Notes under the pieces: generated by a model | What the model saw: the letters and a program-made list of their open reading frames with translations, nothing else | Databases searched by the model: none | Told to the model about the DNA's origin: nothing | Program-made: the position numbers and the translations under genes | Shown here: positions 16,807 to 54,264 of the stretch, piece after piece | Layout: every line of letters begins with the position of its first letter | Numbering within the stretch: position 1 is the first letter of the stretch | From: a virus | Taxonomy: Duplodnaviria; Caudoviricetes | Reading direction: 5' to 3' (one strand) | Length of the DNA: 64,000 bases | IMG/VR virus record: IMGVR_UViG_2540341244_000008 | Location: 528 to 64,527 of that record

Positions 16807-16956
16807 ATGGGCGAAATGGTTTTCAATATTAAGAAGTTCCCGGCTGACCTTCACCACGAGGCGAAGATTGCAGCACTCAAGGGAGGAAAGACCCTCAGGG
16901 ACTGGATAATCGAAGCAGTCAAGGAGAAGTTGGAGCGGTCACAGGAAGCAAAATAA
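16807..16956 (+). CDS. Arc-like ribbon-helix-helix repressor, 49 aa (absent from ORF track)
   Basis: MGEMVFNIKKFPADLHHEAKIAALKGGKTLRDWIIEAVKEKLERSQEAK; GGGAGG RBS. Confidence 0.75.
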   Translation: MGEMVFNIKKFPADLHHEAKIAALKGGKTLRDWIIEAVKEKLERSQEAK

Positions 16957-17031
16957 GCGGCCCCGGCCGGTGCTGGTAACACCGAACCGAGGCCTAACCA
17001 CAAACGACCTTACTAGGAGGTTGTCATGGCT
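16950..17031 (-). ncRNA. Sar-like antisense RNA covering the antirepressor RBS and start codon
   Basis: Minus-strand TTGCCG-17bp-TAAACT (17066-17038); terminal hairpin 16959-16994 with UUACCAG loop. Confidence 0.65.
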
Positions 17032-18009
17032 CAGGCAAGTTTAACCGATTCAGGTTCTGCCGGCAACGGCTCCCAGGGCCTCATGCCCGTCCTGTCTCTC
17101 GTCAACGGCAAGCCCCGGGCTTCGTCCCTCGGCATCGCCGAGCATTTCAAGAAGCGGCACGATAACGTGCTGCGTTCGATCACCCAGACCTGTCACGACC
17201 TGCCAAGCAATTTTTGTGCCCTCAATTTTGAGGAGACATCAATCACTGTGCCCGGCCCTAAGGGCGGCACTCGCCAAGAGCGCGCCTACCTCATGACCCG
17301 CGACGGCTTCACGCTGATCGTGATGAGTTTCACCGGCAAGGAGGCGATGACCTGGAAGCTGCGGTACATTGAAGCCTTCAACGCGATGGAAGCTGAGCTT
17401 TCGCGGCAGCAGTCTTGCTCCGCCCTCACCACTATCACCCCTTCCCAGCAGCAAGAGCTTCAAAACATCGTGGCGGCCAAGGCGTCGGCCTATCCGAAGG
17501 AGGCCCTGGGCCGCGTCCGGGCGCAACTCTGGTCGCGCCTGCACAACAAGTTCAAGGTGGCCAAGTACGACCAACTTCCGACCGGATCGTTCCCTGAGGC
17601 CGTGGAGTATCTGGTGGGGCTGGCGGTGCGCGGGGCGTTCCCGGAGGTGCTGCCGGAGGCCGAACAGGTCAAGGCCCTGCCGGCCCTTCGCCGTCGCGCC
17701 TCCCTGGACGATTACCGCGACCTGTTCCGCGCATTGCCCGAAAGCCCGGCCTATTGGGATTCCCTTCGCGCCCGACTCTTTGCCGCCTCGGAAGCCTTTG
17801 CCAAAGAGCTTGCCACCATCCACGACGAAGCCACTCGGCCATTCCGCGTGAAGCGCAAGCATGAGGTGCGCACCTACTTCGACGCGGCCATAGCCCCGAT
17901 CTCCTGCCTTTTTGAGGATGCCGAACAGGCTCACAGCATGGCCTACCGGAGCGTGTACAACGCCCTGGAGGGTTGCCAAAGCGTGTGGCGCTTGCTGCGG
18001 ATCGGGTAG
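17026..18009 (+). CDS. Rha-family antirepressor/regulatory protein
   Basis: SLGIAEHFKKRHDNVLR, YLMTRDGF, KLRYIEAFNAME; central antirepressor C-terminal-like domain. Confidence 0.9.
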   Translation: MAQASLTDSGSAGNGSQGLMPVLSLVNGKPRASSLGIAEHFKKRHDNVLRSITQTCHDLPSNFCALNFEETSITVPGPKGGTRQERAYLMTRDGFTLIVMSFTGKEAMTWKLRYIEAFNAMEAELSRQQSCSALTTITPSQQQELQNIVAAKASAYPKEALGRVRAQLWSRLHNKFKVAKYDQLPTGSFPEAVEYLVGLAVRGAFPEVLPEAEQVKALPALRRRASLDDYRDLFRALPESPAYWDSLRARLFAASEAFAKELATIHDEATRPFRVKRKHEVRTYFDAAIAPISCLFEDAEQAHSMAYRSVYNALEGCQSVWRLLRIG

Positions 18010-18017
18010 GGGAGGGC

Positions 18018-18152
18018 ATGACCATGAGCGATCCCAAGCGTATCGACGAGGATTTGGCCCTGATTCTGGCGATGATGGAAATTAACTGCGTTCTGGCCGG
18101 GCAGCGCGAGGAGCGGCGGCAAGGGCCGGCCCCGGAGGTGGTGGCGGCGTAG
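18018..18152 (+). CDS. Small hypothetical protein, 44 aa
   Basis: GGGGAGGG RBS; followed by hairpin 18161-18190. Confidence 0.5.
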   Translation: MTMSDPKRIDEDLALILAMMEINCVLAGQREERRQGPAPEVVAA

Positions 18153-18310
18153 GGCAAGGACGGGGGGCGTGAATTGCTCGCCCCCCTGTTGTTATCACTT
18201 TAAATAATTTGGATGCTTCCTTTCAATCTATTGGGGCCGAGCGAAGACATTCGCTCGCTCTTGTTGATTGCTATAAAAATCAAGCAAAAAACATTGCATT
18301 GCAAATATTG

Positions 18311-18883
18311 TTAGTGTTTTGTTGGCAGGGAATAAAATATTGCTATGCACCAACCGGCTAGTAGCATTTTTAGTAAGAGATATCGCATCTTGTGAACGTT
18401 TATATGGTCTGTTAATTCAGAGCCATTAATCTTGTTTTTTCCTATCTTATTGATGCCTATTGTTTTTTGTATGGCAATAATCCAATGAAGTGATTTATTT
18501 TGAAAGGCTTTATGGTTGTCTGCCAATACTAGCCATGCAAAATATATCGATATAGAAGCAATGGCAAGTAATATTGTGTATATAAAATGTAGGCTGTTGG
18601 CAGATGGGAATATGGCAAAAGGGGAAAATGACAATGGGATCATTATTGATCCTGTTGTCCAAATCCTGTTGTTGTCAGATATGAATTGTTGAACGTAGTG
18701 ATTATAAAGATTCTCTAGCCATTTGTGATATTCAGGGCCACATTCTTTACGCATGTTATTAAGTTCTTGTAGATGACTATTTATTTCACCAGTGTCAAGA
18801 TTGTCGCTTGGTATGTTCGAATTCCAAAGTATCTTTATGATTTTCCAAAAATTGCTGAACTTGATTTTCATTTGACCAAACAT
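18311..18883 (-). CDS. AT-rich multi-pass membrane protein (moron)
   Basis: Very low GC, GGAG RBS, about 3 hydrophobic segments. Confidence 0.7.
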   Translation of the reverse strand: MFGQMKIKFSNFWKIIKILWNSNIPSDNLDTGEINSHLQELNNMRKECGPEYHKWLENLYNHYVQQFISDNNRIWTTGSIMIPLSFSPFAIFPSANSLHFIYTILLAIASISIYFAWLVLADNHKAFQNKSLHWIIAIQKTIGINKIGKNKINGSELTDHINVHKMRYLLLKMLLAGWCIAIFYSLPTKH

Positions 18884-19026
18884 GTGTAGTCTCCTTCAGG
18901 TTTTGCTTGCTTAGCTATTTTATTTAATTTCTGCCTATCAAGTCCGTTGTTGCTGCTTGGTATATTTATTTATCACTTTCAAATTATATATTATCTGGAA
19001 AAAAGCAAGGCTGATATTCGGAACGG

Positions 19027-19058
19027 TAACAGGGGCCGACTCCCGCCGGCCCCTGTTA
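19027..19058 (-). terminator. Hairpin ending the head/tail-tube transcript
   Basis: TAACAGGGGCCG / CGGCCCCTGTTA inverted repeat right after the chaperone stop. Confidence 0.65.
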
Positions 19059-19059
19059 A

Positions 19060-19480
19060 TCATTCATCTCCATTCTCGCCCGGCCCTGCTCCGGCCTGGC
19101 CTCTGCCCGACTTTTCCCGCTCCTGAATCAGCGGGAACACTTCCGCCTCAAACCACATGATCCTCTCAAAAGCCTCAACCCCTTGGCCGTAGATCTCGCA
19201 GAGTCCGGACACGATATGGGCGGGGAGGGGCAACAGCGAGGCGACAGATTGCGCGCCGGCCATGGTGACGATGAAATCCATCCTGGTCGGCCGGTCGAAC
19301 TGGTGCGCGGTCTGCCAGATTTTCCAGGGGATGACGTTGGCCGGGAAGAGCGCGCCCGGCTTCTCGCACTCCGGGGAACCGCAGGGGGGAGGAACACCGT
19401 CAAGCTCGTGCTGCTTGCGACAGGCGTCGCAGTCCGATGCCCTCCCCACATGCCAGCGGCCCCAGGCTAGGAGTTTTTTT
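19060..19480 (-). CDS. Tail assembly chaperone, -1 frameshift extension (gpT-like)
   Basis: -1 frame is open from the slippery site: KLLAWGRWHVGRASDCDAC..LFPAN..PW. Confidence 0.75.
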
Positions 19481-19829
19481 CGGTGGCCTCGACGACCAGA
19501 GCGTCCGCGCGGCGGGATTCATTGAGCACGTCGGCGATGACCTGGGTGTGCATCTCGCAGAGGGCTTCCAGGTTGACCGTGCTGTACTCGATCTCGCCGT
19601 CTTCGCCGGGCAGCCCACAAAACCCCCGAATGACCTGGATCGCCCGGGCCTTGAGCAGTCCCATGTCATCCGAGATGATGTAGCCCTTGCTCCGGGTATC
19701 GTATTCCTGGAACTTCTTGGCCAGCTCCTGGTCTTCGCTGGCCGTCATGGGAACAACCTTCCAGGTGACGCCCGGGGCGGACAGGACGCGGATGTTCATT
19801 TCCTTCGGCTTGAGTCGAAACTGTGCCAT
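19467..19829 (-). CDS. Tail assembly chaperone (gpG-like)
   Basis: After tail tube gene; ends GAA AAA AAC TCC TAG (EKNS). Confidence 0.8.
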   Translation of the reverse strand: MAQFRLKPKEMNIRVLSAPGVTWKVVPMTASEDQELAKKFQEYDTRSKGYIISDDMGLLKARAIQVIRGFCGLPGEDGEIEYSTVNLEALCEMHTQVIADVLNESRRADALVVEATEKNS

Positions 19830-19930
19830 GGTCTTTTCCCCTTTCCCCGTATTTTGCGGGCCGGAAGCGGCCGGGGATTCCGCTTTCGGGCGCGCGCCCT
19901 ATCCGACCCGCAAGATTTATCGTGGCTGGC

Positions 19931-21100
19931 CTAGGTCAAGGTCAGCGTGCATTCGTCCTCGCCGTTCGTGCCCAGGGCCTGGACGTCCACGGAGAGGTTC
20001 ATGGTGGGCGACGGGATGGAGACGGTCGGCACGCCGTACTGGGCTCTGGGCATAGCCAGCGTGGCAATTTTTCCGGCCACGGTGCCGAATTGGGCGGATA
20101 GCGCCCCCGTGCTTCCGGCCAGGCCATCGGCGAACATGGCGGCGTCGACCCGCCGGAAGTAGAAGGCCAGCGAGCTCTTTACGGTCCGGCGATCTTCCAC
20201 CGATTCAGTCGGATAGCCGTTCGCGGTCATCTCGTCGTCGAGGAACTTCATCTTGTCGGCCCAGGTCCAATCCAGCGACTGGAGGTTCTTTGGGGAACCA
20301 AGGACGGTGATGACGTTCTTGCGACTCTCCAACGGCGTGCCAATATACGACGGCGTGGGCAGATACCCCTCGATCTGGTCGTCAATGGCCCAGCCGCCGG
20401 CCGGAACGATTCCGGGAGTGACGGTCATGGTGTTGTTGGTCGTGTTGACGTTGGAAACGGTGTAGCCGTTGGTGGCCTTGTCGGATTTGCTCTTGTTCCA
20501 GATGACTGCGCCGTTGCTGAACAGCTTGGCGTTTTTCACGGTGACCGTCGTGGCGGCCTGGGCAGCCGCGGCGGCCACCTGATCCGTCCCGGCGATGCCC
20601 ATATTCATGAACTGACCGGACAGGGAAAGAAGGACGCCGCCCTTGTTCACGGCCTTGATCTGGCACTGGTCCGCCGAGGAACCAAAACAGAAGCGAGTGG
20701 TGTGCCCCTGTTTGGTAAAAAGAGAGAATCCCGGTTTGGTCATTCCGGGGGAATAGACCACGGAGGTGCCAGCGTTGACTGTCCGAGTGCCGAACAGGGC
20801 GTAGAGAATCGCGTCGCCCATGGGCACGCTCCCGGCCGTTCCCGAGGGGCGCAACAGCATGTCCCCCTTCCACGATCCGGCCGGAGCCATGTCCTGAAAG
20901 CGGTCAGTCACGGACCGGGAGTTTTTGATTTCGGGCGAATCGGTGAAAGTCGGGGACTGGTTTATGTCCCAAAACGATGCGCCCACGATGGCTTCAATGC
21001 CGGTGGCCAGGGGGAATTGGAGCAAGCCCTTCGTTGTTTCCACGACCGCAAAGATGGTCTGGTTGAACGGATTCCCGACGCTATTGGGAAGGTTGGCCAT
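19931..21100 (-). CDS. Major tail tube protein
   Basis: Position, 389 aa beta-rich, ends CTLTLT. Confidence 0.8.
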   Translation of the reverse strand: MANLPNSVGNPFNQTIFAVVETTKGLLQFPLATGIEAIVGASFWDINQSPTFTDSPEIKNSRSVTDRFQDMAPAGSWKGDMLLRPSGTAGSVPMGDAILYALFGTRTVNAGTSVVYSPGMTKPGFSLFTKQGHTTRFCFGSSADQCQIKAVNKGGVLLSLSGQFMNMGIAGTDQVAAAAAQAATTVTVKNAKLFSNGAVIWNKSKSDKATNGYTVSNVNTTNNTMTVTPGIVPAGGWAIDDQIEGYLPTPSYIGTPLESRKNVITVLGSPKNLQSLDWTWADKMKFLDDEMTANGYPTESVEDRRTVKSSLAFYFRRVDAAMFADGLAGSTGALSAQFGTVAGKIATLAMPRAQYGVPTVSIPSPTMNLSVDVQALGTNGEDECTLTLT

Positions 21101-21109
21101 GAAAGCCTC

Positions 21110-21508
21110 CTACTCTCCGGTCCATACCCAAAACGGGCAGGTGACCGTATGTTGCTGGTTGTTGCCGCTCACGCCGTTGTCGGTCGTGTAGGGCTCCTCG
21201 TCGTCGTTGAAAAAGACCTCCCCAATGTCCTGTCGCCGAAAGAGAGCCTCAATCTGCCCGGCCAGGGCCGCGCCGATCTGCACGCCGTCGTCCGGATTCG
21301 TGAAGACTTGGACTTTGACTACGCCGTTGCGGTGGCCGCTGCCGCCTGGGCCCATTTCATCGCTGAAGGCCTTCCCGGGCAGCACCGACAACCGGACCCA
21401 AGGGCCGGCCGGCTGGTCAAAAGACAGGTTGTCGTAGGCCACCGGTGTGGCCGTCCAATTGGCCTGGAAATAGGTCTGCACGGCACGGACGATAACGTCG
21501 GGGGTCAT
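21110..21508 (-). CDS. Tail terminator-like protein
   Basis: VAYDN, WVRLSV, GVVKVQVF motifs. Confidence 0.75.
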   Translation of the reverse strand: MTPDVIVRAVQTYFQANWTATPVAYDNLSFDQPAGPWVRLSVLPGKAFSDEMGPGGSGHRNGVVKVQVFTNPDDGVQIGAALAGQIEALFRRQDIGEVFFNDDEEPYTTDNGVSGNNQQHTVTCPFWVWTGE

Positions 21509-21933
21509 ACCGGATACCCCAGTTCCTGCGCACGCCGGGAAATGTGGTCCGCGAACGACAGCATGGCGTTGGCGATGAAGCCGGATGGCGCGAGTGAGGA
21601 GTGCCCATCCTCAAGCGCCATAAGGTACTCGATGTTGTTGTAGAGCACGTAGATATCGGAGTCTGGCAGGGTCGCGATGATCGCCGTAGCCTTGGCCGAG
21701 ACGTCCACGCTCGTATAATCGCCCGGCGGGAGCACCCAATCGGACCAGTGCGTGTCCAGGTTCCAGGACGCGGCACAGCGCACGGTATCCTTGGGGTTGT
21801 CCTTCATGAGGGCAGAAAGAAGGTCGAAAAGCGCCTTGCGCACAATGGTATTGAGGTCCACCCGCGTCTTGTCGACGATCTCTTGCAAGGCCCGCCCGAA
21901 GGCGTCGGCACTGGACTGGAGGTCGGCTTGCAT
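21505..21933 (-). CDS. HK97 gp10-like neck protein
   Basis: PKDT..AASW, NNIEY..ALEDGHS..APSG. Confidence 0.8.
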   Translation of the reverse strand: MQADLQSSADAFGRALQEIVDKTRVDLNTIVRKALFDLLSALMKDNPKDTVRCAASWNLDTHWSDWVLPPGDYTSVDVSAKATAIIATLPDSDIYVLYNNIEYLMALEDGHSSLAPSGFIANAMLSFADHISRRAQELGYPV

Positions 21934-21935
21934 GC

Positions 21936-22298
21936 TCAGTTCCCTCGCGCTTGGATCTTGTAGAGGAGAGGCTCACCAGCGGGGGCGACGTCCTGCACGG
22001 AAACGATGGTCCATGTCTGCCGGGCATCGACCAGGAAATCTGAAGTGCTCGGCTCGCACCCGAGACCCGACGCGGCGACGGTAAATTGCTGATCGCCCTG
22101 CTTGATGCGAGTGCCGTCCACAAGGCTGGCGTGGTAGCCGGAGGAAACGGCATGGCCGGGAAAATCCGTGGAGACGCCGGGGGCGTTCTTGCCTGTGTTG
22201 GAGTCAAAGGCCCCTTTGGTCACGCGGCGGATGGCGATGGCCTGGCCGGCCTTCTTGATTTGGGCGGCGGCGCGGGATGCGGTGGCGACGTAGTTCAT
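21936..22298 (-). CDS. Head closure / head-tail joining protein
   Basis: VDGTRIKQGD, PAG..LLYKIQAR. Confidence 0.75.
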   Translation of the reverse strand: MNYVATASRAAAQIKKAGQAIAIRRVTKGAFDSNTGKNAPGVSTDFPGHAVSSGYHASLVDGTRIKQGDQQFTVAASGLGCEPSTSDFLVDARQTWTIVSVQDVAPAGEPLLYKIQARGN

Positions 22299-22301
22299 GC
22301 T

Positions 22302-22673
22302 CTATTCCGCCTCAACGAAATCACAGGGCGGCGTCTCGTCGAACCGCACAGCCCGAATGGTGGCGCGGCCTTCGACCAAGGCCCGGGTGATCCGGTGCCA
22401 GCCATCCATAATGAAGCCTTCAGCGTCGAGAATGATGGGGCAATCCATGTCGGCGGCGAGCGCGCGCTTCATGTGCTCGGCCAGGGCATAGGCGGATTCG
22501 ATGGGATCAAAGACCTTCGCACCCGAGAAAAGCGCGATGAGAGGCAAATCGAAGGGCTCCAAACCCTTAGCCCGCTCGATCAAGGACGTGACACGCCAGA
22601 CGCGCCGGCCGTCGCGGAACGTGTTGGAGCAAAGCGGGCTCGGCTGGATCGGGACGGGTTTGTAGTCGGCCAT
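22302..22673 (-). CDS. Stand-alone ParB/Srx-fold protein
   Basis: PIILD..G.IMDGWHR motif. Confidence 0.75.
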   Translation of the reverse strand: MADYKPVPIQPSPLCSNTFRDGRRVWRVTSLIERAKGLEPFDLPLIALFSGAKVFDPIESAYALAEHMKRALAADMDCPIILDAEGFIMDGWHRITRALVEGRATIRAVRFDETPPCDFVEAE

Positions 22674-22675
22674 GG

Positions 22676-23206
22676 CTACCCTCGCACCAACTCGACCGAA
22701 TCCGACGACTTCAAAAACGGCCGCACCAACGCCTCGATCGCCAGGAACCGCGTTCCGGCCGGAGCGCCGTTGGCGTACTGCGTCGTGATGACGTCCACGC
22801 GCTCCATTATCACCTGGCCGCCGCGCTCCAGGTCCGGCAGCATGTCGGTACCGGCGAGGTAGCGAAGGGCGGCCTCACATTGGGCCTGCTTCACGGCCTC
22901 GGGGATTTCGTTGGAGGGCCAGTAATCCGCATAGGCGTATCCAAGGTAATTCACGCCGGAAGACCCGGGCAACGGCATGTTGTAGCGTGGCCAGCACATG
23001 GCCTGATGCACACGGTCCACCTTGTCGCCGAGCCAGCAAAGGCCGTTCAGGTAGCGCCCGGCGCGGACCAAGGCCGCCTCTTTGGCCGCGGCCTCGCCGG
23101 CCCAGGACGTTTCCCCGGATGCGGCGAAGTACGCGTCGGCATAGGCCATATCCACAAAAGAGTTGGCCCCGGCCACTCCGGACCCAATTTCGACGATGAG
23201 TGCCAT
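22676..23206 (-). CDS. Head-tail adaptor (DnaT-like family)
   Basis: MALIVE.G.G..ANSFV, Q.M.WPR, IPEAVKQAQCEAA. Confidence 0.85.
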   Translation of the reverse strand: MALIVEIGSGVAGANSFVDMAYADAYFAASGETSWAGEAAAKEAALVRAGRYLNGLCWLGDKVDRVHQAMCWPRYNMPLPGSSGVNYLGYAYADYWPSNEIPEAVKQAQCEAALRYLAGTDMLPDLERGGQVIMERVDVITTQYANGAPAGTRFLAIEALVRPFLKSSDSVELVRG

Positions 23207-23209
23207 GGG

Positions 23210-23452
23210 CTACGCCTTGTCCTCCTCGTCCACGACGGTCGGAAAGTCGGCCGGCTGAGCCTGAACCAACCCGCCGGTGGCCATGAGCTTATCGCAAGCC
23301 TCGGCCTCGGCGCAGTTGGCATGCCCCTCGGGGCAATCGCACACGGGGCGGCGGTCGCCGGCGTCCTCGGGGTGGATCGCGAAAAGGCGGTAGCGCCCGG
23401 TGCCACGGCCTTCGGCGTCGGCCAGCTCGAGCGGTTGAATGCGCGGCTCCAT
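23210..23452 (-). CDS. Hypothetical protein
   Basis: AAGGAG RBS, operon packing. Confidence 0.55.
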   Translation of the reverse strand: MEPRIQPLELADAEGRGTGRYRLFAIHPEDAGDRRPVCDCPEGHANCAEAEACDKLMATGGLVQAQPADFPTVVDEEDKA

Positions 23453-23454
23453 GA

Positions 23455-23715
23455 CTACTCCTTCGTCCCGGCTTCGGCGGCCTGGATCACGGCCAGGATC
23501 GCGTCCTTGGTGGTGTTGTCCGCGCCAATGGTGATGCCGTGTTCTTTGGCGTAATCGCGAAGTTGCAAGATGGTCATATCGGCCAAGGGCTTGGGCTCCG
23601 CTTCGGCGGCCTCGCCGAACTTGGTGTGCTCCTGCGGGTCGAAATCGGTTTCGTTGATGAGCATCCCCTCGGAGAAGCCTTCGTGCTCGATGCGGACGGT
23701 CTTGATCTGGTCCAT
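23455..23715 (-). CDS. Small protein with Rho-N/HeH-like C-terminal domain
   Basis: MTILQLRDYAKEHGI..TKDAILAVI; AAAGAGG RBS. Confidence 0.7.
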   Translation of the reverse strand: MDQIKTVRIEHEGFSEGMLINETDFDPQEHTKFGEAAEAEPKPLADMTILQLRDYAKEHGITIGADNTTKDAILAVIQAAEAGTKE

Positions 23716-23773
23716 ACTGTCCTCTTTCGGAAGCGGGGCGACTTGGGTCACCCCGCAGTGAATGGTATGGGGC

Positions 23774-24949
23774 CTAGCCCATCAGCCGGACGCCCAGGGC
23801 CGGACGCGGCGCACCGACGCCCCACAGGCAGTCGAAGGCCCACCGGATGCGGTGGAACTCCTCGCGCACATGCAGGCGCAGGGTCAGGCCGGAAACCGGG
23901 TCGGCCACCTGCATCATGTTCTCAATGGGCACGGTGCTGATGGTCGGGTCATTGCCCAGGGCGCGGGAGGCAAAGGCCAGGGCGTCACGATGAAAGGCCA
24001 AGTTCATGACGTGGCTGGGGGTGACGGTGATGGCTTCGCCACCGGCCAGCGCCACGGCCTTGGCCGGGCTGATGTTCAAGGTGATGTCCGAGGCGGCCGT
24101 GGCCTGGGTGGCGTCGGCGGTCAAAACATATTTCTGGGCATCCCCGGCGAAGGAGATGATGTCGCCGAGCTTGAGGGCGCAGGCCCCGGTCGCAGCAGCC
24201 GTGGTGGCCACAATACTGGACAGGCCGGCCGCCTGGACCGTAGCGGCCTTGGCGGCGAGGCCGGTGGTGATGGTGCCGGCGGCATGGGTCGGAACCTGCT
24301 GGTCTTCGTGGAAGTCGAAGCCGAACTTGCGGCCAAGCAGACCTTCGCGCATGACGTTCGGGTCGCCGGAATTCTGGAGGAACTGGAAGGCCTGGAGATT
24401 CATCGCGGCAGCGGCGGCATCCACGTCCAGAACCAAATGCCGGTCCCGGAGGGGAGCCAGGGCCTTGGAAAGCAACTTCCGGCAGCCGGTGGCGTCCGAA
24501 ACCAGTGGGGCGGCCAGGGTGCCGAAGGGCGTGGTACCAGCGGTCCCCATGACCGTATAAAAGGCGTTGGCCGCACTGAAAATGTCGGCATTGATGTACT
24601 CGGCAAGCGCCTTGACGGCGGATCCGACTTCCAGGGATGGCAGCCCCTGGGTGATCTTCGCCAATTCGGCCTCGTTCAAGGTAAAGGCCGCTTCCTTCCA
24701 GCGGTCCAGGGATATCTTGGCCGTAGTCGGGGTGAGGTTGCCCGGGTCCGGGGCGTAGGGTCCGGGAATCACGTCCGTGACAGCGACGGCCGAGGGGATG
24801 GGGATATCGACCGTCGCGCCCTTCTTGGCGGCGTCCACGGAATAGTCGTTGTTGACGATACCCGGCATGGTACAGGCCGAACGCAGGGCCATCAGGCCCT
24901 GGGCAAAGATGGTGGGGATGAGTGCGGTAAGCGTGTTGCTCACGGCCAT
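23774..24949 (-). CDS. Major capsid protein (P22 coat family)
   Basis: GATVDIPIP, NLAFHRDA, FDCLWG motifs; AAGGAG RBS. Confidence 0.9.
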   Translation of the reverse strand: MAVSNTLTALIPTIFAQGLMALRSACTMPGIVNNDYSVDAAKKGATVDIPIPSAVAVTDVIPGPYAPDPGNLTPTTAKISLDRWKEAAFTLNEAELAKITQGLPSLEVGSAVKALAEYINADIFSAANAFYTVMGTAGTTPFGTLAAPLVSDATGCRKLLSKALAPLRDRHLVLDVDAAAAAMNLQAFQFLQNSGDPNVMREGLLGRKFGFDFHEDQQVPTHAAGTITTGLAAKAATVQAAGLSSIVATTAAATGACALKLGDIISFAGDAQKYVLTADATQATAASDITLNISPAKAVALAGGEAITVTPSHVMNLAFHRDALAFASRALGNDPTISTVPIENMMQVADPVSGLTLRLHVREEFHRIRWAFDCLWGVGAPRPALGVRLMG

Positions 24950-24967
24950 TATGGCTGCTCCTTGCGG

Positions 24968-25732
24968 TTATACGACCTTCATTTCTCCGGAAGCGACCTT
25001 GTCCAGGTTCGCCAGGAAGGCTTTCTGGTCGGTCTTGGCGATGGCGCCGGGAGGGGTGACGGTCGCGGGGTTCGGGTTGTTCGGAGCGCCGCCGCCGGTC
25101 GCGCCGGTGCCCTTCAGGATGGCTTCTTTCTGGGGGTAGGCGTCCAAGATGGTTTCAAGGGCTTCGTCGAAATCGGCCAACTCGCCGGGCTTGGAACGGG
25201 AATAGACCTTGTTACCGTTCAGGTAGCCGACCACACGGCCGTCCTCGACCTTGAAGGCGCTGCCGAATTTGGCTTCGAGCAGGTCGGAGGGGATGGCCAC
25301 CTTGTCTTTGACGAACGTGGAGTTGGCGAAGCCACCGGAAACCTTCATGGCGTAGATAATGCCGTCCTTGTCCTGGAGCTGCTTGCCCATGTCGGCCAGC
25401 TTCACCTCGTAGGACTTGGTCGTCTCAGCCCGGATTTCATCCTTCATCTTCTCCACCTCGCCCGCGTCGATCAGCTTCTTCGCGTCGAGGTTTTTGACGA
25501 GTTCCACAGCCTTTTTGGCGGCCTCGGGATCGTCGATGCCGGCAAAAATCGCCAGCTTGGCGGTGGCTTCCTCGGCCTTGATCCGGTGATCCTTGGCCTC
25601 GGCGTTGAGGGCCGAAATCTTGGACATGGCGGCCGGCGCGTCGAAGGGGATTTCCTTCCCGTCGTCGTGAACATAAACCGGCTTGCCGTCCTGCAAGACC
25701 ACGTTTCCCTTGTCGTCCAGCTTGAGCTTCAT
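24968..25732 (-). CDS. Capsid scaffolding protein (DUF6651-like)
   Basis: MKLKLD..G.VVLQDGKPVYVHDDGKE, PGELADFDEALE. Confidence 0.85.
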   Translation of the reverse strand: MKLKLDDKGNVVLQDGKPVYVHDDGKEIPFDAPAAMSKISALNAEAKDHRIKAEEATAKLAIFAGIDDPEAAKKAVELVKNLDAKKLIDAGEVEKMKDEIRAETTKSYEVKLADMGKQLQDKDGIIYAMKVSGGFANSTFVKDKVAIPSDLLEAKFGSAFKVEDGRVVGYLNGNKVYSRSKPGELADFDEALETILDAYPQKEAILKGTGATGGGAPNNPNPATVTPPGAIAKTDQKAFLANLDKVASGEMKVV

Positions 25733-25839
25733 GCGATTCCTCGCGCAATTTGCGGCCTTCCAGCCTGGTTTCTTCGAGGCTTCCGCCCCAGGTGTGAAAA
25801 TTCGTCACAGATTGAGATGTGGCCCACGCTATGGGCCGC

Positions 25840-25877
25840 CATGAGCATCCGCCGCCCCCTCGGTGCAAATATTTTGA
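25840..25877 (-). promoter_or_regulatory. Putative late-promoter motif, copy 2 (capsid module)
   Basis: + strand CATGAGCATCCGCCGCCCCCTCGGTGCAAATATTTTGA. Confidence 0.75.
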
Positions 25878-25971
25878 GGGACGGATGGCAGGCCGGGCCA
25901 GGGCTGAAGCAAGCGGACAGGGTGCGGAGGGGGATAGGGGTGATTTGTTGATTGCGGAAAATAAAATTCTA

Positions 25972-25999
25972 TTGACAAAATTTTTGACGTTGGTATTTT
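25972..25999 (+). promoter_or_regulatory. Strong sigma70 promoter of accessory operon
   Basis: AT-rich UP element, TTGACA, 16 bp, TGn-TATTTT. Confidence 0.65.
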
Positions 26000-26051
26000 A
26001 TTTTTAACGAAAGCGGGAATGGCCCGCCGAGACAAACCAAGGGGGGAGGGT

Positions 26052-26393
26052 ATGGCCACCGCTTACCAGCTTATGTGCAAGCAGGCCCAGGGATTCATGA
26101 CCGCATACCAGACGGACCTAAGCGTACACGACAGGCAATCATTAAAGGCAACTAAGGGGTTCTTTCTTTGGTGCCTCCGCGCAATGGGGACGCATATCTA
26201 TTTCAAGAACTGGAAATACGACGGCGACCTCATGTTTCCCCTCCGCTGCGAAGAGTCTGAACATAAATTTTTCTTGGGGTACAACATTCCTGGGGAGCAC
26301 TCGCTTGTGCAAATAACCCCGCAAGAAGCCCTGGAGCTGTTTGAAAAGTGGACTAAGACGACGAAAAAAGCCCCCACCGGCGGCAACCAGTAG
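26052..26393 (+). CDS. Hypothetical protein
   Basis: GGAGG RBS; first gene after the promoter. Confidence 0.65.
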   Translation: MATAYQLMCKQAQGFMTAYQTDLSVHDRQSLKATKGFFLWCLRAMGTHIYFKNWKYDGDLMFPLRCEESEHKFFLGYNIPGEHSLVQITPQEALELFEKWTKTTKKAPTGGNQ

Positions 26394-26432
26394 GGGCTGA
26401 GAGTGAAACAAGGGCGTACCCCGATTCCGAGC
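26364..26432 (-). ncRNA. Candidate small antisense RNA
   Basis: Minus-strand TTGCCT-17bp-TACCCT (26467-26439); terminator stem with UUGCCG loop and U-tract. Confidence 0.55.
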
Positions 26433-26479
26433 ATGAAGAGGGTAGGCCCGCAACCGCCGAAAGGCAAGAGGTGAAAGCA

Positions 26480-27295
26480 ATGACCTACCCCCTGAGCAAC
26501 GAACAGCTTGAACGCGTGGCCCCGGCGATTTTCGCGGAAACACCTTGGGATGAGGTCTCCGCGCGGTACGTGTTTGTACCGACCTCGACCGTGGTGGAGA
26601 TGCTCCGCCGAGAAGGTTTCGAACCCGTGCGCGCTATGCAGTCCCGGACCCGCATTGAGGGCAAACAGGGCTTTACGAAGCACCTGCTCCGGTTCCGTCA
26701 CCGGGATTTCTTGATGGACCGCAGCTTGACCCCGGACGATCTCGGAACGCTCATCCCGGAAATCGTGGTGACCAACAGCCACGACCGAGGGAGCGCGTTC
26801 AAGGTGGATCTGGGCATCTTTCGGTTGGTTTGCACCAACGGCATGGTGGTTGGTGACCATCTATGCCCGCCCGTCTCCATCCGCCACTCGGGCCGGCCGG
26901 ACGACGTGATCGACGCCGCTTTCGAGGTGATCGGACACGCGCCGGCCGCCCTGGATGCGGCTCGCGAAATGCGCGCCCTGACCCTGGCCCCGGGCGAACA
27001 GGCTGCCTTTGCTACGGCGGCCCGAGAACTGCGCTGGCCGACCGATGACGCCGCGACCGCCCGCGTGGAGCCGGAAAGCCTGCTGCGCCCGCGCCGCTGG
27101 GACGACAAGGGGAATGACCTGTGGGCCGTGCTCAACCGGGCCCAGGAAAATATTCTCAAGGGCGGCGTGAAGGTGCGTGGGGCCGATGGTAAGCCCCGCC
27201 GTGCGACGGCGGTCGCCAGTGTGGATGGCGACCGCAAGCTGAATAAGGCCCTGTGGACCCTGGCCGAGGAAATGCGCCGGATCAAGGCCGCGTAG
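26480..27295 (+). CDS. DUF932/DUF945-family protein
   Basis: FTKHLLRFR, NSHD.GSAF, GIFRLVCTNG, LNKALWTLAE. Confidence 0.9.
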   Translation: MTYPLSNEQLERVAPAIFAETPWDEVSARYVFVPTSTVVEMLRREGFEPVRAMQSRTRIEGKQGFTKHLLRFRHRDFLMDRSLTPDDLGTLIPEIVVTNSHDRGSAFKVDLGIFRLVCTNGMVVGDHLCPPVSIRHSGRPDDVIDAAFEVIGHAPAALDAAREMRALTLAPGEQAAFATAARELRWPTDDAATARVEPESLLRPRRWDDKGNDLWAVLNRAQENILKGGVKVRGADGKPRRATAVASVDGDRKLNKALWTLAEEMRRIKAA

Positions 27296-27348
27296 CGCGA
27301 GAAAGGCCGGGGAGGGGGAAGCCTCTCCCCGGCCAGGAGACACAAACC

Positions 27349-28140: not shown

Positions 28141-28174
28141 TGTAGGTGAGGGACGTCCTTTTCCCGGGAGTTTT

Positions 28175-28357: not shown

Positions 28358-28366
28358 GGGGGATGG

Positions 28367-28738: not shown

Positions 28739-28740
28739 TG

Positions 28741-49849: not shown

Positions 49850-50046
49850 GCCGCGTCCTGGGGCTGGGAGGGGAGGCTAACCCCGCGCTGGTCGTATTCC
49901 CGGGGGAACATCCAGTAGAGACGGTGGATGCTGGTTTTTGCCTCAAGGGTCTTAGCAAGGGCCTTTGAAAACCCCCGTCCGCTCACGAAATAATGCGCGG
50001 CCCGTTTCGAGCATCCTGCCAGATTCATGACTTGCTGTGCATTCAT
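49846..50046 (-). CDS. cro: Cro-like repressor
   Basis: Small HTH protein divergent from cI. Confidence 0.75.
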   Translation of the reverse strand: MNAQQVMNLAGCSKRAAHYFVSGRGFSKALAKTLEAKTSIHRLYWMFPREYDQRGVSLPSQPQDAA

Positions 50047-50047
50047 A

Positions 50048-50141
50048 AGCACAGATTGTGCGCCAAACTCATGGCGCAGTCAAGGGTGAGTGCATTAAAA
50101 ATGCATGGACAAAAAAACGCCAGGAGTGCACAGAATGTTCA
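50048..50141. promoter_or_regulatory. OR-like operator region with PR
   Basis: TGCAy-N5-rTGCA-like sites at 50048, 50091, 50127; minus-strand TTGACT-17bp-CACAAT (50083-50055). Confidence 0.75.
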
Positions 50142-50827
50142 TGATACCGCGCCCGGCAACCAAAGAAGAAATCATGGAGTTGGTCGAAAAAGCCATCAAG
50201 AAGGCTGGCTCGGCCGACAAGCTTGTCGACATGACGGGATGGTCGTTAAGGGCTGTCAATTATTACAAAAAGGGCGAGCAAAGACCGTCGCCAGCTCGGA
50301 TTGAAAAGCTCCTAGAGATTTGCCAGGAAGCGGCCTGCCCCGATGCTGGCATTGAAAATGCCTCAGGGCCGGCGGTTGCCGAAAGCCCGGCCGGGTACAA
50401 TGAATACCTGGAGATTCCTCTTCATGAGGCGACGGGATCGATGGGCGGCGGATCAACGGAGTTTGGCGACAAAATCCAACAGCATCTAAGTTTTCGTCGC
50501 GATTGGCTGAGCAGTATTCATGCCCGTCCCGAGAATTTGTTCTGCATCTATGTCTACGGTGACTCCATGAGTCCGACGGTTACGGATGGCTCCGTGGTCC
50601 TGGTCGACAAAGGGCGGAAGGCGTTTGCCAGCAACAAGGTTTTTTACATCCGTCACGATAAGCAAATGTTTTTGAAGAGACTCATTGGGACGGAGAGAGA
50701 TTTGAAAATTGTGTCCGACAATGACCCTGCTCACCCAGTTGAAGTCAAGTCTGGTGGCGAGTTCGTGGACGGCGACGACTTCGAGATCATCGGTCGGGCG
50801 CTTTGGATGGGAAGGATGATTGATTAG
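50135..50827 (+). CDS. cI: CI repressor (HTH plus S24 peptidase)
   Basis: HTH; VYGDSMSP, FLKRL, IIGRALW; AGGAG RBS. Confidence 0.92.
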   Translation: MFMIPRPATKEEIMELVEKAIKKAGSADKLVDMTGWSLRAVNYYKKGEQRPSPARIEKLLEICQEAACPDAGIENASGPAVAESPAGYNEYLEIPLHEATGSMGGGSTEFGDKIQQHLSFRRDWLSSIHARPENLFCIYVYGDSMSPTVTDGSVVLVDKGRKAFASNKVFYIRHDKQMFLKRLIGTERDLKIVSDNDPAHPVEVKSGGEFVDGDDFEIIGRALWMGRMID

Positions 50828-50836
50828 GTGGTTCCA

Positions 50837-51289
50837 ATGTCAGAAACTATTTCTTCTCCTCCTGAACGCTTACTAAAAAAGAAGTGCCCTTGTGGAACTA
50901 TGCTGAAGATGTTTGCTATTGTTGGGCTTCCATATATGCCTGAATGGCTTACCGTTGAAATGCTTAAATTTTCTATCAAACAAGAAATACCTAGGTATTA
51001 TCCAGGTATCCAAGTACAAGCTATGCTTTGCGGAATTGCATTTACTGCGACATGCAATGAGTGCGGAGGAATAACAGCATGGGACTTGGGGTTGGAAGAA
51101 TTGGATTATCTTCTTAGTGACGACAAAGAACCAGGTTATGGGATAGCTTGGATTTATAATCCAACAAAGTTGAAAGAAGTCTACGACACTGATATGCTAA
51201 GAGTGTATGGGAAGAGGATTATAGATATCGCTCAAGTCATCGACGATCAAAGATTACAATCAGAAAGAGCTAGAAGTGAGAAAGAATAA
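50837..51289 (+). CDS. AT-rich Cys-containing hypothetical protein
   Basis: CPCG..CNEC; directly after cI. Confidence 0.65.
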   Translation: MSETISSPPERLLKKKCPCGTMLKMFAIVGLPYMPEWLTVEMLKFSIKQEIPRYYPGIQVQAMLCGIAFTATCNECGGITAWDLGLEELDYLLSDDKEPGYGIAWIYNPTKLKEVYDTDMLRVYGKRIIDIAQVIDDQRLQSERARSEKE

Positions 51290-51578
51290 TATTACACCAT
51301 TCCCTGGCAATAAAGGGGGTGGATCAGGATTTGACATTCCCTCTGGCGGTGATAATTTTGGGGGTATGGAAGCCAGAGTCGCCAAGCTCGAATCAGATGT
51401 CGGGAACATTAAGACAAATATTGAAGATATCAAAAAGGATATCCGAGAGTTTCGTACCGAAATTAAGGACGTCCGAAAAGATATGCAGCTAGATTTCCGC
51501 ATTCTTTTTGGGTCGTTGATATTTGCCGTTCTGGGATTGGCCGGCATGATGGCGAAGGGCTTCGGGTGGATCAAGTAA
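51276..51578 (+). CDS. Coiled-coil protein with C-terminal TM
   Basis: MEARVAKLESDV..IK heptads; LAGMMAKGFGWI. Confidence 0.7.
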   Translation: MRKNNITPFPGNKGGGSGFDIPSGGDNFGGMEARVAKLESDVGNIKTNIEDIKKDIREFRTEIKDVRKDMQLDFRILFGSLIFAVLGLAGMMAKGFGWIK

Positions 51579-51997
51579 TGCATGTCTACCTTGCCGGCCC
51601 CTTGTTCACCCACGCTGAACGCGCCTACCTTGCCGCCCTCCGCGACCGGCTGCGCCAAATTTCTGGCGTCTCTGTGACTTGGCCGGGCGATCTTTTTGAT
51701 GACGCTCACCTGACTTCCCTTGGGCCGGCTGCCCGGCGGCATATCTTTGAAGGCTGCCGCGATGCCATCCACGCCGCCACACAGGTTGTTGCCAACCTTG
51801 ACGGTCCCCAGGTGGACGACGGCACGGCCTGGGAGATCGGCTATGCCCATGCCCGAGGCCTGCCCGTTTGGGGCCTACGCACGGACTTCCGACAGGCTGG
51901 GGATACGCCTTATTCCCTGGCCAACGCCATGATCGAGTGCTCCTGCGCCCGCATATTCCGTTCCGCCGAAGACCTCTTGGCCGCCCTGGCCGAATAG
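51578..51997 (+). CDS. Nucleoside 2-deoxyribosyltransferase-family protein
   Basis: VYLAGPLF, DDGTAWEIGYA, RTDFR, NAMI. Confidence 0.9.
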   Translation: MHVYLAGPLFTHAERAYLAALRDRLRQISGVSVTWPGDLFDDAHLTSLGPAARRHIFEGCRDAIHAATQVVANLDGPQVDDGTAWEIGYAHARGLPVWGLRTDFRQAGDTPYSLANAMIECSCARIFRSAEDLLAALAE

Positions 51998-52020
51998 CCC
52001 AAACACCATAAGCCAAGCCC

Positions 52021-52044
52021 AAACCCGCCCCGGCGGGTTTTTTT
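52021..52044 (+). terminator. Terminator of the cI operon
   Basis: AAACCCGCC-CC-GGCGGGTTTTTTT. Confidence 0.85.
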
Positions 52045-52056
52045 GCGCCCTCTCTT

Positions 52057-52108
52057 TGCATCGATTATGCACTGATCTCTTGACCGTGTGCATTGTCTGT
52101 GCAATTAT
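52057..52108 (+). promoter_or_regulatory. OL-like operators and PL
   Basis: TGCATCGATTATGCA (52057), TGCATTGTCTGTGCA (52089); TTGACC-17bp-AATTAT. Confidence 0.75.
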
Positions 52109-52326
52109 GCACTCAACGAACGCCACCACGACCCAAACACTCCGCGCCCCCGGGCCGGCAAGTAGGGGCAGGGCGGCGGGACAGACCGGAACGCGACCAG
52201 ACGGACCCAAAGAGTAAGCCGCAAGCGCGCCAGGGTAGGGCACAGCCCACCAGGCGGCAGCGGGAAAGCACACCACCAGCGGGGCCAGGGAGCGGAATGG
52301 AAAGACGAGAAAACGCCTTTGCTGAC

Positions 52327-52338
52327 GATCTTTGACAA
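52327..52338 (+). promoter_or_regulatory. boxA-like antitermination signal
   Basis: GATCTTTGACAA versus consensus GCTCTTTAACAA, in the PL leader. Confidence 0.5.
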
Positions 52339-52454
52339 CTTGGCCCCTTACGCAGCGAGCAACCAACGCAACCGTTGGCAACGGCTAGCCAGGGGCATGA
52401 CGAGACGAAATTTCATCGGGGCCGTCTATGCGGCGGCCCCGGAAATCGTGGCCC

Positions 52455-52625
52455 CTTGGGATGGCCCAGGAGGCGAGAAAACCCTGAAGGTCCCGCAGAT
52501 ACGGATGCCCTTCGCCTGGGCAGAAGCGGACGGCCAAGGCTTAACGGCCTCGCCCCTAGATGGACGATGGGATTTTCCCTGGAACCCACCGGGGTGGCTC
52601 GGGTCCGTGCCCAGGCCATCCCAAG
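52455..52625 (+). ncRNA. Candidate multibranched RNA
   Basis: Perfect 12-bp closing helix CTTGGGATGGCC/GGCCATCCCAAG with nested helices. Confidence 0.45.
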
Positions 52626-52649
52626 AGGTCGCGAGAAAAGGAGGAGCCT

Positions 52650-52838
52650 ATGGAGGCGCAGAAATCCGCTGTGCTGCGGGTCTTGGACCTGATGGACGCT
52701 CGGGACCATGTGGAACGGGTGGCCATGGACGGCCGCGAGGCCCCGGCGACGATTCTTTATTACGGCAATGGGGGCGGAGCTGGCTTCGGCCCTGAATATT
52801 TCGGCCTCTCGCCACGTCCGACCGGGGTCGGGGTCTAG
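52650..52838 (+). CDS. Small hypothetical protein
   Basis: AAAGGAGGAG RBS. Confidence 0.6.
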   Translation: MEAQKSAVLRVLDLMDARDHVERVAMDGREAPATILYYGNGGGAGFGPEYFGLSPRPTGVGV

Positions 52839-52848
52839 ATCAAATTAT

Positions 52849-52925
52849 CGGGGCATGGCAAAGTCGGAACGCGCATTTGATGTGGGAACCGATTATCAGA
52901 GGTTTCAATCTTCTCGCTCCGACTA
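52849..52925 (+). pseudogene. Degenerate tRNA-Pro(UGG)-like element
   Basis: 77 nt; CGGGGC/GCTCCG acceptor stem, TGG anticodon at 52883, AGAGG-TTTCAAT-CTTCT T-arm, ends ACTA. Confidence 0.65.
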
Positions 52926-53010
52926 TATCGCTCTGTGACCCTCCTAACTCTAACCCGGGCGGCCTGTACCTCCCCATGCAGGCGGTCCGACCATTCCCCA
53001 GGAGGTAACC

Positions 53011-53481
53011 ATGTCCTTCGATGCCGCCATGGCTCGCATATTCTCCATCTCCGGCACCCGCACGCAGGTCGAACTGGCTGCACAGCTCGGCATCCGTCAG
53101 TCCAGCATATCCGACGCCAAACGACGCCAATCCATCCCCGACGCCTGGCTGATCACGCTTTACCGACTCAGGCAGGCCAATCCCGACTGGATTATGACCG
53201 GCGAGGGCATGCCGTACTTGGCCATGGATACGAGCCGGGGAACGGAAGGCATGGCCGCCGTGCCGATGACCGCAACCACGGGCCAGACTCAAGAACCAGC
53301 CAAAACCTTGGATGAACTTCTGGCGCCTGCCAGGGCCATGGCTGGGCCCGGGTCCAAGATCCTTATCGTACCTGCCGGGTCGAGGGTGACTGTGGACGTG
53401 CCCTTGGAAACTGATGCCAATGACAACCTTGGGCTCGCCGAGCTTCAGGCGGCGCAGGAGGGATATGACAGAGGACAATGA
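53011..53481 (+). CDS. Phage CI-type HTH regulator without peptidase domain
   Basis: TRTQVELAAQLGIRQSSISDAKRR.SIP..W, NPDWIMTGEG. Confidence 0.85.
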   Translation: MSFDAAMARIFSISGTRTQVELAAQLGIRQSSISDAKRRQSIPDAWLITLYRLRQANPDWIMTGEGMPYLAMDTSRGTEGMAAVPMTATTGQTQEPAKTLDELLAPARAMAGPGSKILIVPAGSRVTVDVPLETDANDNLGLAELQAAQEGYDRGQ

Positions 53482-53629
53482 CCCCACAATGCGCAGCATC
53501 ACCAGGGCCGGCCTGATCGTCGGCTTGGCCCTGGTAGTTGTGATGCTCGTTAAAGCGGTCCAGGCCCCTACCTTCTCCCAAAACCAGGACGCATGCGCCT
53601 ACGGTATGTGCAAAGTGGGGGAGCCATGA
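53465..53629 (+). CDS. Small membrane protein
   Basis: AGGAGG RBS, single TM. Confidence 0.55.
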   Translation: MTEDNDPTMRSITRAGLIVGLALVVVMLVKAVQAPTFSQNQDACAYGMCKVGEP

Positions 53630-53919
53630 GTACGTGCAAGCACTGTTGGGACTACCATGAAGGCTACTGCGGATGGCTGTCCGAGCAGGCGAGGGAGGGA
53701 GTGATTGCCGTGGGCGTGGAACTGCCCCAGGAATCCCTGGATCAAATCCGCGTCCCTGTGCCCGCCGATTTCGCCTGCTCCGAGATTCGCGACTGCAGCC
53801 CTGAAGCCCAGGCCGAGGCGCTCCACGATGCCGAGGTCAAAGAGCACAGAAGGGCGGTCACAGCCCCTCTAGCCATTGCCTCCACGCCCCCTCCCGCTTC
53901 CCTGCCTACCCACAAATAG
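53626..53919 (+). CDS. Cys-rich hypothetical protein
   Basis: ATGA coupling, CKHC..C. Confidence 0.55.
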   Translation: MSTCKHCWDYHEGYCGWLSEQAREGVIAVGVELPQESLDQIRVPVPADFACSEIRDCSPEAQAEALHDAEVKEHRRAVTAPLAIASTPPPASLPTHK

Positions 53920-53936
53920 CCCGCCAGGAGGTCCTC

Positions 53937-54140
53937 ATGCAGGCCCCCGGAACCCGTGAGCAACGCTACGGGGTCTCGCCGCTCGCCCAAGACAATGAGC
54001 GGCAACGTTACGAATTCTATCTGCTCGGACTGACCGGAAACCACGGCGAGGTGCGCCGGAGGCTGATCGAGGCCGAGGCCGCGGTGCGGCAGCGGATCCT
54101 GGCCAGGGTGCTGGCGGTTCGAATCCTCACGGTGCCGTGA
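53937..54140 (+). CDS. Small hypothetical protein
   Basis: AGGAGG RBS. Confidence 0.55.
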   Translation: MQAPGTREQRYGVSPLAQDNERQRYEFYLLGLTGNHGEVRRRLIEAEAAVRQRILARVLAVRILTVP

Positions 54141-54143
54141 CCG

Positions 54144-54216
54144 CCAAAAAGCAACCGGCCCGATGCTGGAACACCGGGCCGGCAAAAAGCAACTCCTGCG
54201 GGGAACAAAAACAAGC
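54144..54216 (-). ncRNA. Candidate small antisense RNA
   Basis: Minus-strand TTGACT-18bp-TAGGTT (54252-54223); 12-bp stem with UUCCAG loop then GCUUUUU. Confidence 0.55.
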
Positions 54217-54264
54217 AACCGAAACCTACGGCCCTGCGGCCGTCAAAGTCAATAAGGAGCTGTC

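Follow-up and report, generated by a model that had tools for sequence, protein, structure and literature searches.

Short antisense RNAs encoded in cis are textbook regulators of plasmid copy number, of toxins and of phage decisions, and to our knowledge few families of them have been catalogued outside the enterobacteria. The promoter of one such RNA, SymR, lies inside symE. Passages of PMC8136791 describe RepX, from the IncQ-1 plasmids RSF1010/R1162, as a 75-nucleotide (nt) RNA with two stem-loops and a GUUA linker, whose antisense target in repA comprises the ribosome site and the start codon; this is at odds with a passage of the review PMC12361487 that lists IncQ as having no antisense system. 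In parts of PMC5415839, SymR is given as encoded in cis to symE, and table 2 of the same source has CopA acting via the leader or coupled translation and OOP via RNase III cleavage; passages of PMC13397905 give sar of phage P22 an influence on the choice between lytic growth and the establishment of lysogeny. Here we compare these systems with three minus-strand sites in a stretch of 64,000 nt (hereafter the window), which comprises bases 528-64527 of the 64,527-base provirus record IMGVR_UViG_2540341244_000008, rated complete by CheckV. Site A faces a Rha-family antirepressor gene, site B a DUF932 gene and site C a gene for a protein of 431 amino acids (aa), and our analysis indicates that the three are probably genes for short (~70-80 nt) cis-encoded antisense RNAs, and that each, together with the 5' end of the gene opposite, makes up a single cassette.

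A first-pass annotation of this DNA had proposed that, after the fashion of sar and SymR, three short RNAs are transcribed from the minus strand, each between a promoter and a terminator of its own, and this core idea is supported by comparative evidence, which is strong at A, good at B and moderate at C. Read on the minus strand, all of the hairpins, U-tails and promoter hexamers that it listed are present at the three sites (Table 1), including three G-U pairs in each terminator stem, and it is because of these pairs that the minus strand folds better than the plus strand at A (-39.5 vs -31.1 kcal/mol), B (-33.5 vs -18.9 kcal/mol) and C (-34.4 vs -24.0 kcal/mol). In a scan of the window for hairpins followed by a T-tail, the sites scored -26.7 (A), -25.5 (C) and -24.0 kcal/mol (B), ranking first, joint third and sixth, and they are the strongest terminators found there that are compact, fully paired and intergenic. 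All three are antisense to the plus-strand genes around them.

The strand on which these structures are selected can be read from relatives, which were found by protein-guided IMG/VR searches for each downstream gene. Across 27 terminator hairpins from the three families there are 65 G-U pairs and zero A-C 1x1 mismatches, and in 25 of them it is the minus strand that folds more stably. Counted as cells of the alignments, G-U outnumbers A-C by 68 to 6 in family A (15 sequences), 26 to 1 in family B (6) and 18 to 0 in family C (8). This excess argues that the minus strand is the RNA strand; the structures were predicted from minus-strand alignments, which biases such counts towards G-U, but the overall imbalance (112 vs 7) is too large for that bias alone. 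The region of the 5' stem-loop (SLI) is likewise minus-specific in 12/13 sequences of family A and 6/6 of family B, but not in family C (3/8). At all three sites the terminator lies opposite the target gene and the structure is selected on that strand, which is one of the marks of a cis-encoded antisense small RNA.

The case is most complete at site A, which we regard as very probably a cis-antisense RNA gene. Its proposed promoter lies inside codons 5-14 of the Rha gene, and the predicted RNA starts ~7 nt downstream of the -10 hexamer and covers the ribosome site and start codon, with an anti-start CAU and an anti-Shine-Dalgarno CCUCC in SLI and a GUUA-type linker that reads GGUUAGG. A covariance-model search, which the first-pass annotation had put forward as a check, bore the element out: a model built from five phage sequences of family A (R1) found it upstream of Rha-type genes at 14 loci including the window (E <0.001, 81 sources), two of them identical, leaving 13 distinct phage sequences. 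When these were aligned with two plasmid members (MAFFT, 15 sequences), a two-stem-loop structure emerged with 87.2% of cells paired, a level reached by 0/500 shuffles and compared with 33-51% in slid controls, and 15/23 pairs have changes on both sides. Furthermore, a scan of positions 7-66 in the first 22 codons of the 13 divergent Rha genes found few conserved positions besides the start, few passing ~70%. The TA of the -10 hexamer is nevertheless kept in 11-12/13 and the TTG of the -35 hexamer in 10-12/13, always with a 17-nt spacer. This TA is carried by codon 6 as TTA, ATA or GTA, so that the amino acid varies between Leu, Ile and Val, yet all three codons are A/T-rich in a G+C-rich genome, and the two bases upstream of the -10 are also conserved, giving a G at -14 on the RNA strand in 12/13. 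Such a conserved promoter-like sequence within Rha codons is hard to explain by protein constraint. The gene itself also matches the Rha-like and anti-repressor families of PHROGs.

Relatives of site A are not confined to phages, and R1 found five plasmid loci at 40-59 bits, on small plasmids of Burkholderia glumae, Cupriavidus pauculus, Aeromonas, Pseudomonas and Solidesulfovibrio. These members precede other genes, in one case after a CopG-family gene and in another before an ORF (open reading frame) of 24 codons. In the window the position upstream of site A is taken by a 49-aa ORF, which probably encodes a ribbon-helix-helix repressor, judging from sub-threshold Pfam matches (Table 1), and whose place in a B. 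glumae plasmid is occupied by the CopG-family gene. A promoter-like TTGACA stands ~45 nt before this ORF on the plus strand, so that site A would have convergent promoters. In the C. pauculus plasmid (L246/L248; ~1565-1640 of L246), the conserved ATG GCT opens the 24-codon ORF, which ends just before a DNA methyltransferase gene; by analogy this suggests a leader-peptide coupling like that of R1 CopA/tap.

Among the described systems, RepX is the one to which site A is nearest. The site matches RF00043 (R1162/RepX) with 36.7 bits (E 4e-5 over 201 nt, gathering score 55), a relative (L008) does so with 36 bits, and the plasmid relatives bridge the two, with 25-46 bits to RF00043 and the 40-59 bits to the phage-built R1. 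Both RNAs are of ~75-80 nt, have two stem-loops and a GUUA-type linker, and cover, in antisense, the Shine-Dalgarno and start codon of the gene that follows, with sequence similarity across the linker and ribosome-site region. They differ in that the RF00043 match is on the plus strand, with GGAG and AUGGCU in the Rfam consensus, so that this model appears to depict the target strand; in that A fronts a phage Rha antirepressor and not a plasmid replication gene (repA-repC) or helicase; and in having a clear U-tail, whereas that of RepX is short and without three consecutive uridines. The match to SymR (RF01809) is weaker (27 bits, E 0.002, gathering score 61), but it is on the minus strand and aligns over the full 77 positions, with a common anti-start (UCAUGA/CCAUGA), UUGUG-UUAG linker region and GUGUU...GCAC hairpin top; SymR targets an SOS-induced toxin and site A an antirepressor. 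Given the shared RepX plan and linker, we place site A, as a new member, in a wider group of RepX/SymR-like RNAs. P22 offers a likeness of layout, with a small gene, arc in that phage, upstream of the antirepressor gene in both. It also offers one of function, sar being a small antisense RNA that restrains a phage antirepressor according to passages of PMC13397905 and PMC5415839, but Ant and Rha are different proteins, sar has no sequence relationship to A, and RF00262 (sar, gathering score 43) gave no site A match at E up to 10. Our literature searches, which covered antisense RNAs in connection with antirepressors, prophages, Rha and DUF932, found no report of the elements described here, nor of a RepX/SymR-like design that guards phage antirepressor genes.

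Site B is likely to be a cis-antisense RNA gene as well. Its proposed -35 hexamer overlaps the DUF932 Shine-Dalgarno by 2 nt of DNA, the start of that gene being the conserved ATG at 26480 according to the alignment of relatives (the ORF list offers a GTG at 26471 as an alternative). Family B consists of the window and five relatives, from all collections searched, and all six sequences have TTGCCT-17-TA[C/G]CCT. SLI forms on the minus strand alone in 6/6 (-8.9 to -14.9 vs -0.6 to -7.5 kcal/mol on the plus strand), and 7/25 predicted pairs have changes on both sides. The predicted RNA is complementary to the DUF932 leader from ~-115 to -50, and the first-pass annotation was right that the RNAs at B and C leave the ribosome-binding site uncovered, including the Shine-Dalgarno at B. 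A strong plus-strand promoter-like site, with 10/12 matches to consensus, faces the proposed B promoter (Table 1), and in two relatives (L084 and L083) an AT-rich promoter-like sequence lies directly upstream of the hairpin; the plus-strand mRNA would therefore contain the target of RNA B. Scans with the DUF932 protein over genome contigs (46 loci) and metagenome contigs (80 loci) recovered the element in the known relatives only, and a DNA-pattern scan gave 14 loci, 9 of them unrelated chance matches.

At site C the balance is about even between an antisense RNA gene on the one hand and a terminator that lacks a promoter of its own, or a leader element, on the other. The family comprises nine sequences, the window and L146 included, the latter being the one relative added by a pattern scan. 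Conservation begins at the predicted RNA start: the RNA opens with an invariant 11-nt 5' run, GCUUGUUUUUG, followed by a small SLI of the CUCC-CCGCA-GGAG type that is also invariant, and the -35 TTGACT is the same in 9/9. The terminator covaries, with 5/18 predicted pairs changed on both sides. No convincing trans targets of the invariant 5' end were found within the window.

No Rfam family matched B or C, apart from an RF00262 match at B that covers the terminator only (18.6 bits, E 0.28), and searches for plasmid relatives of the two found none, each giving one weak match (E 0.1-0.4). As models for these sites we take CopA/CopT of R1 and OOP of lambda, which are cis-antisense and leave the target's own ribosome site uncovered, but which have no sequence or Rfam relationship to B or C and do not face DUF932 or the 431-aa gene.

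In relatives of all three sites, the conserved block runs from the terminator tail to the start codon, and beyond the tail the sequences are unrelated. Since conservation starts exactly at the tail, each element and the 5' end of its gene move together as one block. Strong terminator-like hairpins in the 260 nt before homologues are antisense-oriented at 8/45 loci for B, 5/18 for C and 9/79 for A, and sense-oriented at 0, 0 and 5 respectively, in a census that overlooked some known elements (e.g. L007 and L008). Two of the elements, A and C or B and C, can occur together in single related phage genomes (shared contigs L002 and L130, L081 and L131, L083 and L146). However, the "phage-wide layer" of antisense control put forward in the first-pass annotation was overstated: there are three cassettes, each tied to its own gene, and related phages do not always have all three.

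The cassettes have a plan in common, but not a sequence, as cross-matches between the models are weak (15-21 bits). The shared hairpin loop that had been claimed stands for families A and C, which have GGUGUU...GCACC at the top of the hairpin, and not for B, which has GGUUGCCGCC instead. The apex GGUGUU...GCAC is also present in the SymR consensus, and the GGUUGCCGCC of B recurs in pAb5S9, a plasmid member of family A. Terminators of the host do not generally follow the pattern GGTGTT-N3-5-GCACC, which has 12 occurrences in a related host genome vs 18 for a reversed control, and the window is not enriched in it either. In two Desulfovibrionaceae genomes, L217 (1430-1570) and L218, an ordinary terminator is preceded, at a distance of ~60 nt, by a hairpin with an A/C-type apex (GGTGTTCCAGCACC), which in L217 follows a tRNA gene; several further matches to the model R2 in these genomes sit on short contigs, so the hairpin may be part of a repeated mobile element. 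Over 151 Desulfovibrionaceae genomes R2 gave many matches of 25-36 bits, and the 14 inspected were ordinary terminators, not homologues.

Several observations weigh against reading the sites as antisense RNA genes. A look-up of RNA sequencing runs for 16700-26600, which spans sites A and B, returned none. The promoter hexamers fit the E. coli consensus at just 7-8/12 positions and fall below the promoter-scan threshold, so that they went unlisted, and both Rfam matches of site A (RF00043 and RF01809) are below their gathering scores. The six B sequences have a protein identity of at least 75%, so their invariant hexamers may reflect short divergence, and RNAalifold places the B -10 hexamer in a helix, which, if real, would require transcription to start further upstream. 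At site C, the -10 is TAnnnT in just 2/9 sequences, TAGGGG in 3/9 and neither in 4/9, and SLI is without strand preference, the minus strand being more stable in 3/8. Moreover, the C spacer is a GC-rich covarying palindrome with Watson-Crick pairs only, which suits a DNA operator, or a hairpin in some longer transcript, no less than a promoter spacer.

Weak hexamers, and a total of terminator-like sites in the window that is not above shuffled expectation, are what one would expect if three ordinary hairpins merely stood near promoter-like sequences by chance. Yet a promoter pattern is present 70-80 nt upstream of all three terminators, and even the minimal form TTGNNN-16..18-TANNNT, which was picked after the fact, occurs only 41 times in 128 kb (both strands of the window), with the end of such a site falling in 0.96% of 30-nt intervals; matches at the right distance from all three terminators therefore go far beyond what chance would give. 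Covariation and conservation among relatives, the sub-threshold Rfam matches and the plasmid homologues of A speak against coincidence too, and we consider it a very remote explanation, contradicted by the comparative data.

A more substantial alternative is that no small-RNA promoter is dedicated to the hairpins at B and C, that these are terminators which stop antisense or read-through transcription into the plus-strand islands, for example from Mor-dependent late operons, and that the conserved stretch between hairpin and gene is the 5' leader or operator DNA of the plus-strand gene. Long minus-strand operons do flank the islands and a Mor-family activator is present, the C -10 is not conserved, the C palindrome is perfectly Watson-Crick in all sequences as suits a DNA operator, and a GCC-loop-GGC hairpin beside the Shine-Dalgarno at B has GNRA loops (GAAA, GCAA) on the plus strand alone. 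However, an insulator would be expected where minus-strand transcription enters the island, at ~32430, whereas B sits 6 kb further on; the elements accompany the downstream gene and not the flanking operons; SLI of B is minus-strand-only in 6/6; and the rare promoter pattern stands at the right distance at all three sites. We therefore think this alternative unlikely.

We hold it to be more improbable still that the conserved blocks are plus-strand 5' leaders of the DUF932 and 431-aa genes, structured to serve as operators of translation, stabilisers or antitermination sites, and that their resemblance to minus-strand terminators is incidental. Such leaders would accord with the invariant A-rich run and small invariant hairpin at C, with the strong plus-strand promoter-like site in the window, and with the promoter-like sequence directly upstream of the hairpin in L084/L083, from which the plus-strand mRNA must hold the whole block. 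But the plus strand loses the pairs behind the G-U vs A-C counts (26/1 at B, 18/0 at C), its folds are not more stable than those of shuffled sequence (z -0.27 at B, -1.32 at C), and the T-run follows the hairpin on the minus strand only. Genes for short antisense RNAs thus remain our preferred reading of the three sites.

Table 1 Positions of the three candidate antisense cassettes, the genes that they face and the main gene blocks (window coordinates)
Feature	Position	Strand	Details
Site A, proposed promoter	17038-17066	-	-35 TTGCCG 17066-17061, 17-nt spacer, -10 TAAACT 17043-17038
Site A, predicted antisense RNA, ~80 nt	16950-17031	-	SLI ~17030-16996, linker, SLII/terminator 16994-16959, tail GCTTATTTT
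Rha-family antirepressor gene	17026-18009	+	GGAGG ~17016-17020, ATG 17026; Pfam Phage_pRha, E 3.3e-26
49-aa ORF upstream of site A	16807-16956	+	Weak, sub-threshold Pfam matches: Omega_Repress, HicB, 56B_RHH, E 0.004-0.02
Site B, proposed promoter	26439-26467	-	-35 TTGCCT 26467-26462, 17-nt spacer, -10 TACCCT 26444-26439
Site B, predicted antisense RNA, ~70 nt	26363-26432	-	SLI ~26427-26404, linker, SLII/terminator 26398-26369, TTTTTT tail
DUF932 gene	26480-27295	+	Pfam DUF932, E 6e-36
Strong promoter-like site	25972-25999	+	TTGACA-16-TATTTT, TG before -10; 10/12 matches; faces B promoter
Site C, promoter-like site	54223-54252	-	-35 TTGACT 54252-54247, 18-nt spacer, -10 TAGGTT 54228-54223
Site C, predicted antisense RNA, ~70 nt	54146-54216	-	SLI, U-rich linker, SLII/terminator 54183-54154, tail TGCTTTTT
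431-aa gene downstream of site C	54265-55560	+	First of module with AAA_23 ATPase and UvrD helicase (Pfam, PHROGs)
Minus-strand gene run	~49247 down to 869	-	cro-side early region, methylase, Mor-family activator, endolysin, terminase, portal, head, tail
Mor-family activator gene	42003-42380	-	In minus-strand run
Endolysin gene	40976-41875	-	In minus-strand run
Plus-strand island 1	15306-18009	+	Small ORF, Rha antirepressor
Plus-strand island 2	26019-32429	+	DUF932, DUF4942, HigB, M78/HTH (helix-turn-helix) protein
Plus-strand arm	~49993-62862	+	S24 repressor, CI-type HTH, 431-aa protein, AAA_23 ATPase, UvrD helicase

The window, with a G+C content of ~60%, is that of a tailed temperate phage according to its ORF listing, third-position G+C and Pfam/PHROG scans, and the record is a provirus of the Desulfovibrionaceae, with a sulfate-reducing host in which it would carry its three cassettes of antisense type. 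The closest relative found, which shares 94% identity in the DUF932 protein, is a Solidesulfovibrio alcoholivorans DSM 5433 prophage. Megablast against the phage collection gave no match for 15000-39999, and only short matches of 74-79%, mostly inside a methylase gene, for 40000-64000. Sites A and B lie in the two plus-strand islands that break the long minus-strand gene run, and site C in the plus-strand arm.

A fourth antisense-oriented hairpin, at 41893-41930 (+), strong, GC-rich and with a T-tail, lies between the Mor-like activator and endolysin genes, and was not counted among the cassettes because it has no strand preference (-46.1 vs -44.2 kcal/mol) and no promoter recognisable by eye. 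It is 83% conserved in the syntenic provirus L331, and may belong to a late promoter or leader that depends on Mor. Other features of the window include an int-alpA RNA (RF02996) between two minus-strand genes of the tail region, at 19845-19909 (-), which at 41.8 bits is above the Rfam gathering score of 35.8; a 2077-aa tail protein at 8840-15073 (-), the central domain of which resembles the C-terminus of the type VI spike VgrG3 (PF21277, E 1.6e-27); a patatin-like phospholipase gene at 39219-40151 (-), adjoining the lysis region; and, in the second plus-strand island, at 29268-30796 (+), a HigB-like toxin gene followed by that of a 391-aa protein with HTH and M78/IrrE peptidase domains. At 52010-52054, a bidirectional terminator-like hairpin after a nucleoside 2-deoxyribosyltransferase gene ends a low-G+C block at 50-52 kb.

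As we picture the cassettes, a sigma-70-type promoter in the start region of each gene would point against the direction of that gene, and its RNA would have a small 5' stem-loop, joined by a short linker to a GC-rich intrinsic terminator. That these promoters are used and that the RNAs affect the target genes is inferred here from sequence and its comparison. RNA A would block translation of the Rha mRNA by pairing with its Shine-Dalgarno and start codon, in the manner of RepX on repA, SymR on symE and sar on P22 ant. At B and C the RNAs would base-pair within the 5' leader, upstream of the ribosome site, and act indirectly, by cleavage of the duplex, by altering the structure of the leader, or by collision with a convergent plus-strand promoter. 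The RNAs may silence these genes in the lysogen, or may act as a brake on the burst of expression after infection or induction, each being one possibility.

A bolder and rather doubtful proposal is that site A is one instance of a portable antisense cassette, made up of terminator, two-stem-loop RNA, ribosome site, start codon and a promoter in the first 14 codons, which has been placed before unrelated genes of plasmids, chromosomes and phages (IncQ repA, E. coli symE, the short ORF that precedes the methyltransferase gene of a plasmid, and Rha of phages). B and C would then be members so far diverged that the SLII apex (GGUGUU..GCACC or GGUUGCCGCC) alone is retained, as a putative site for an RNA-binding protein in hosts without FinO/ProQ; a FinO/ProQ domain was found neither in the provirus nor in a related host genome.

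The occurrence of family A on 13 viral contigs suggests that a RepX/SymR-like design also guards antirepressor genes of phages, and B and C represent two candidate RNA families without an Rfam match. If the RNAs are expressed, they would offer a way to study the silencing of accessory gene islands that lie within late operons, and the evolution of antisense cassettes by recombination would become testable.

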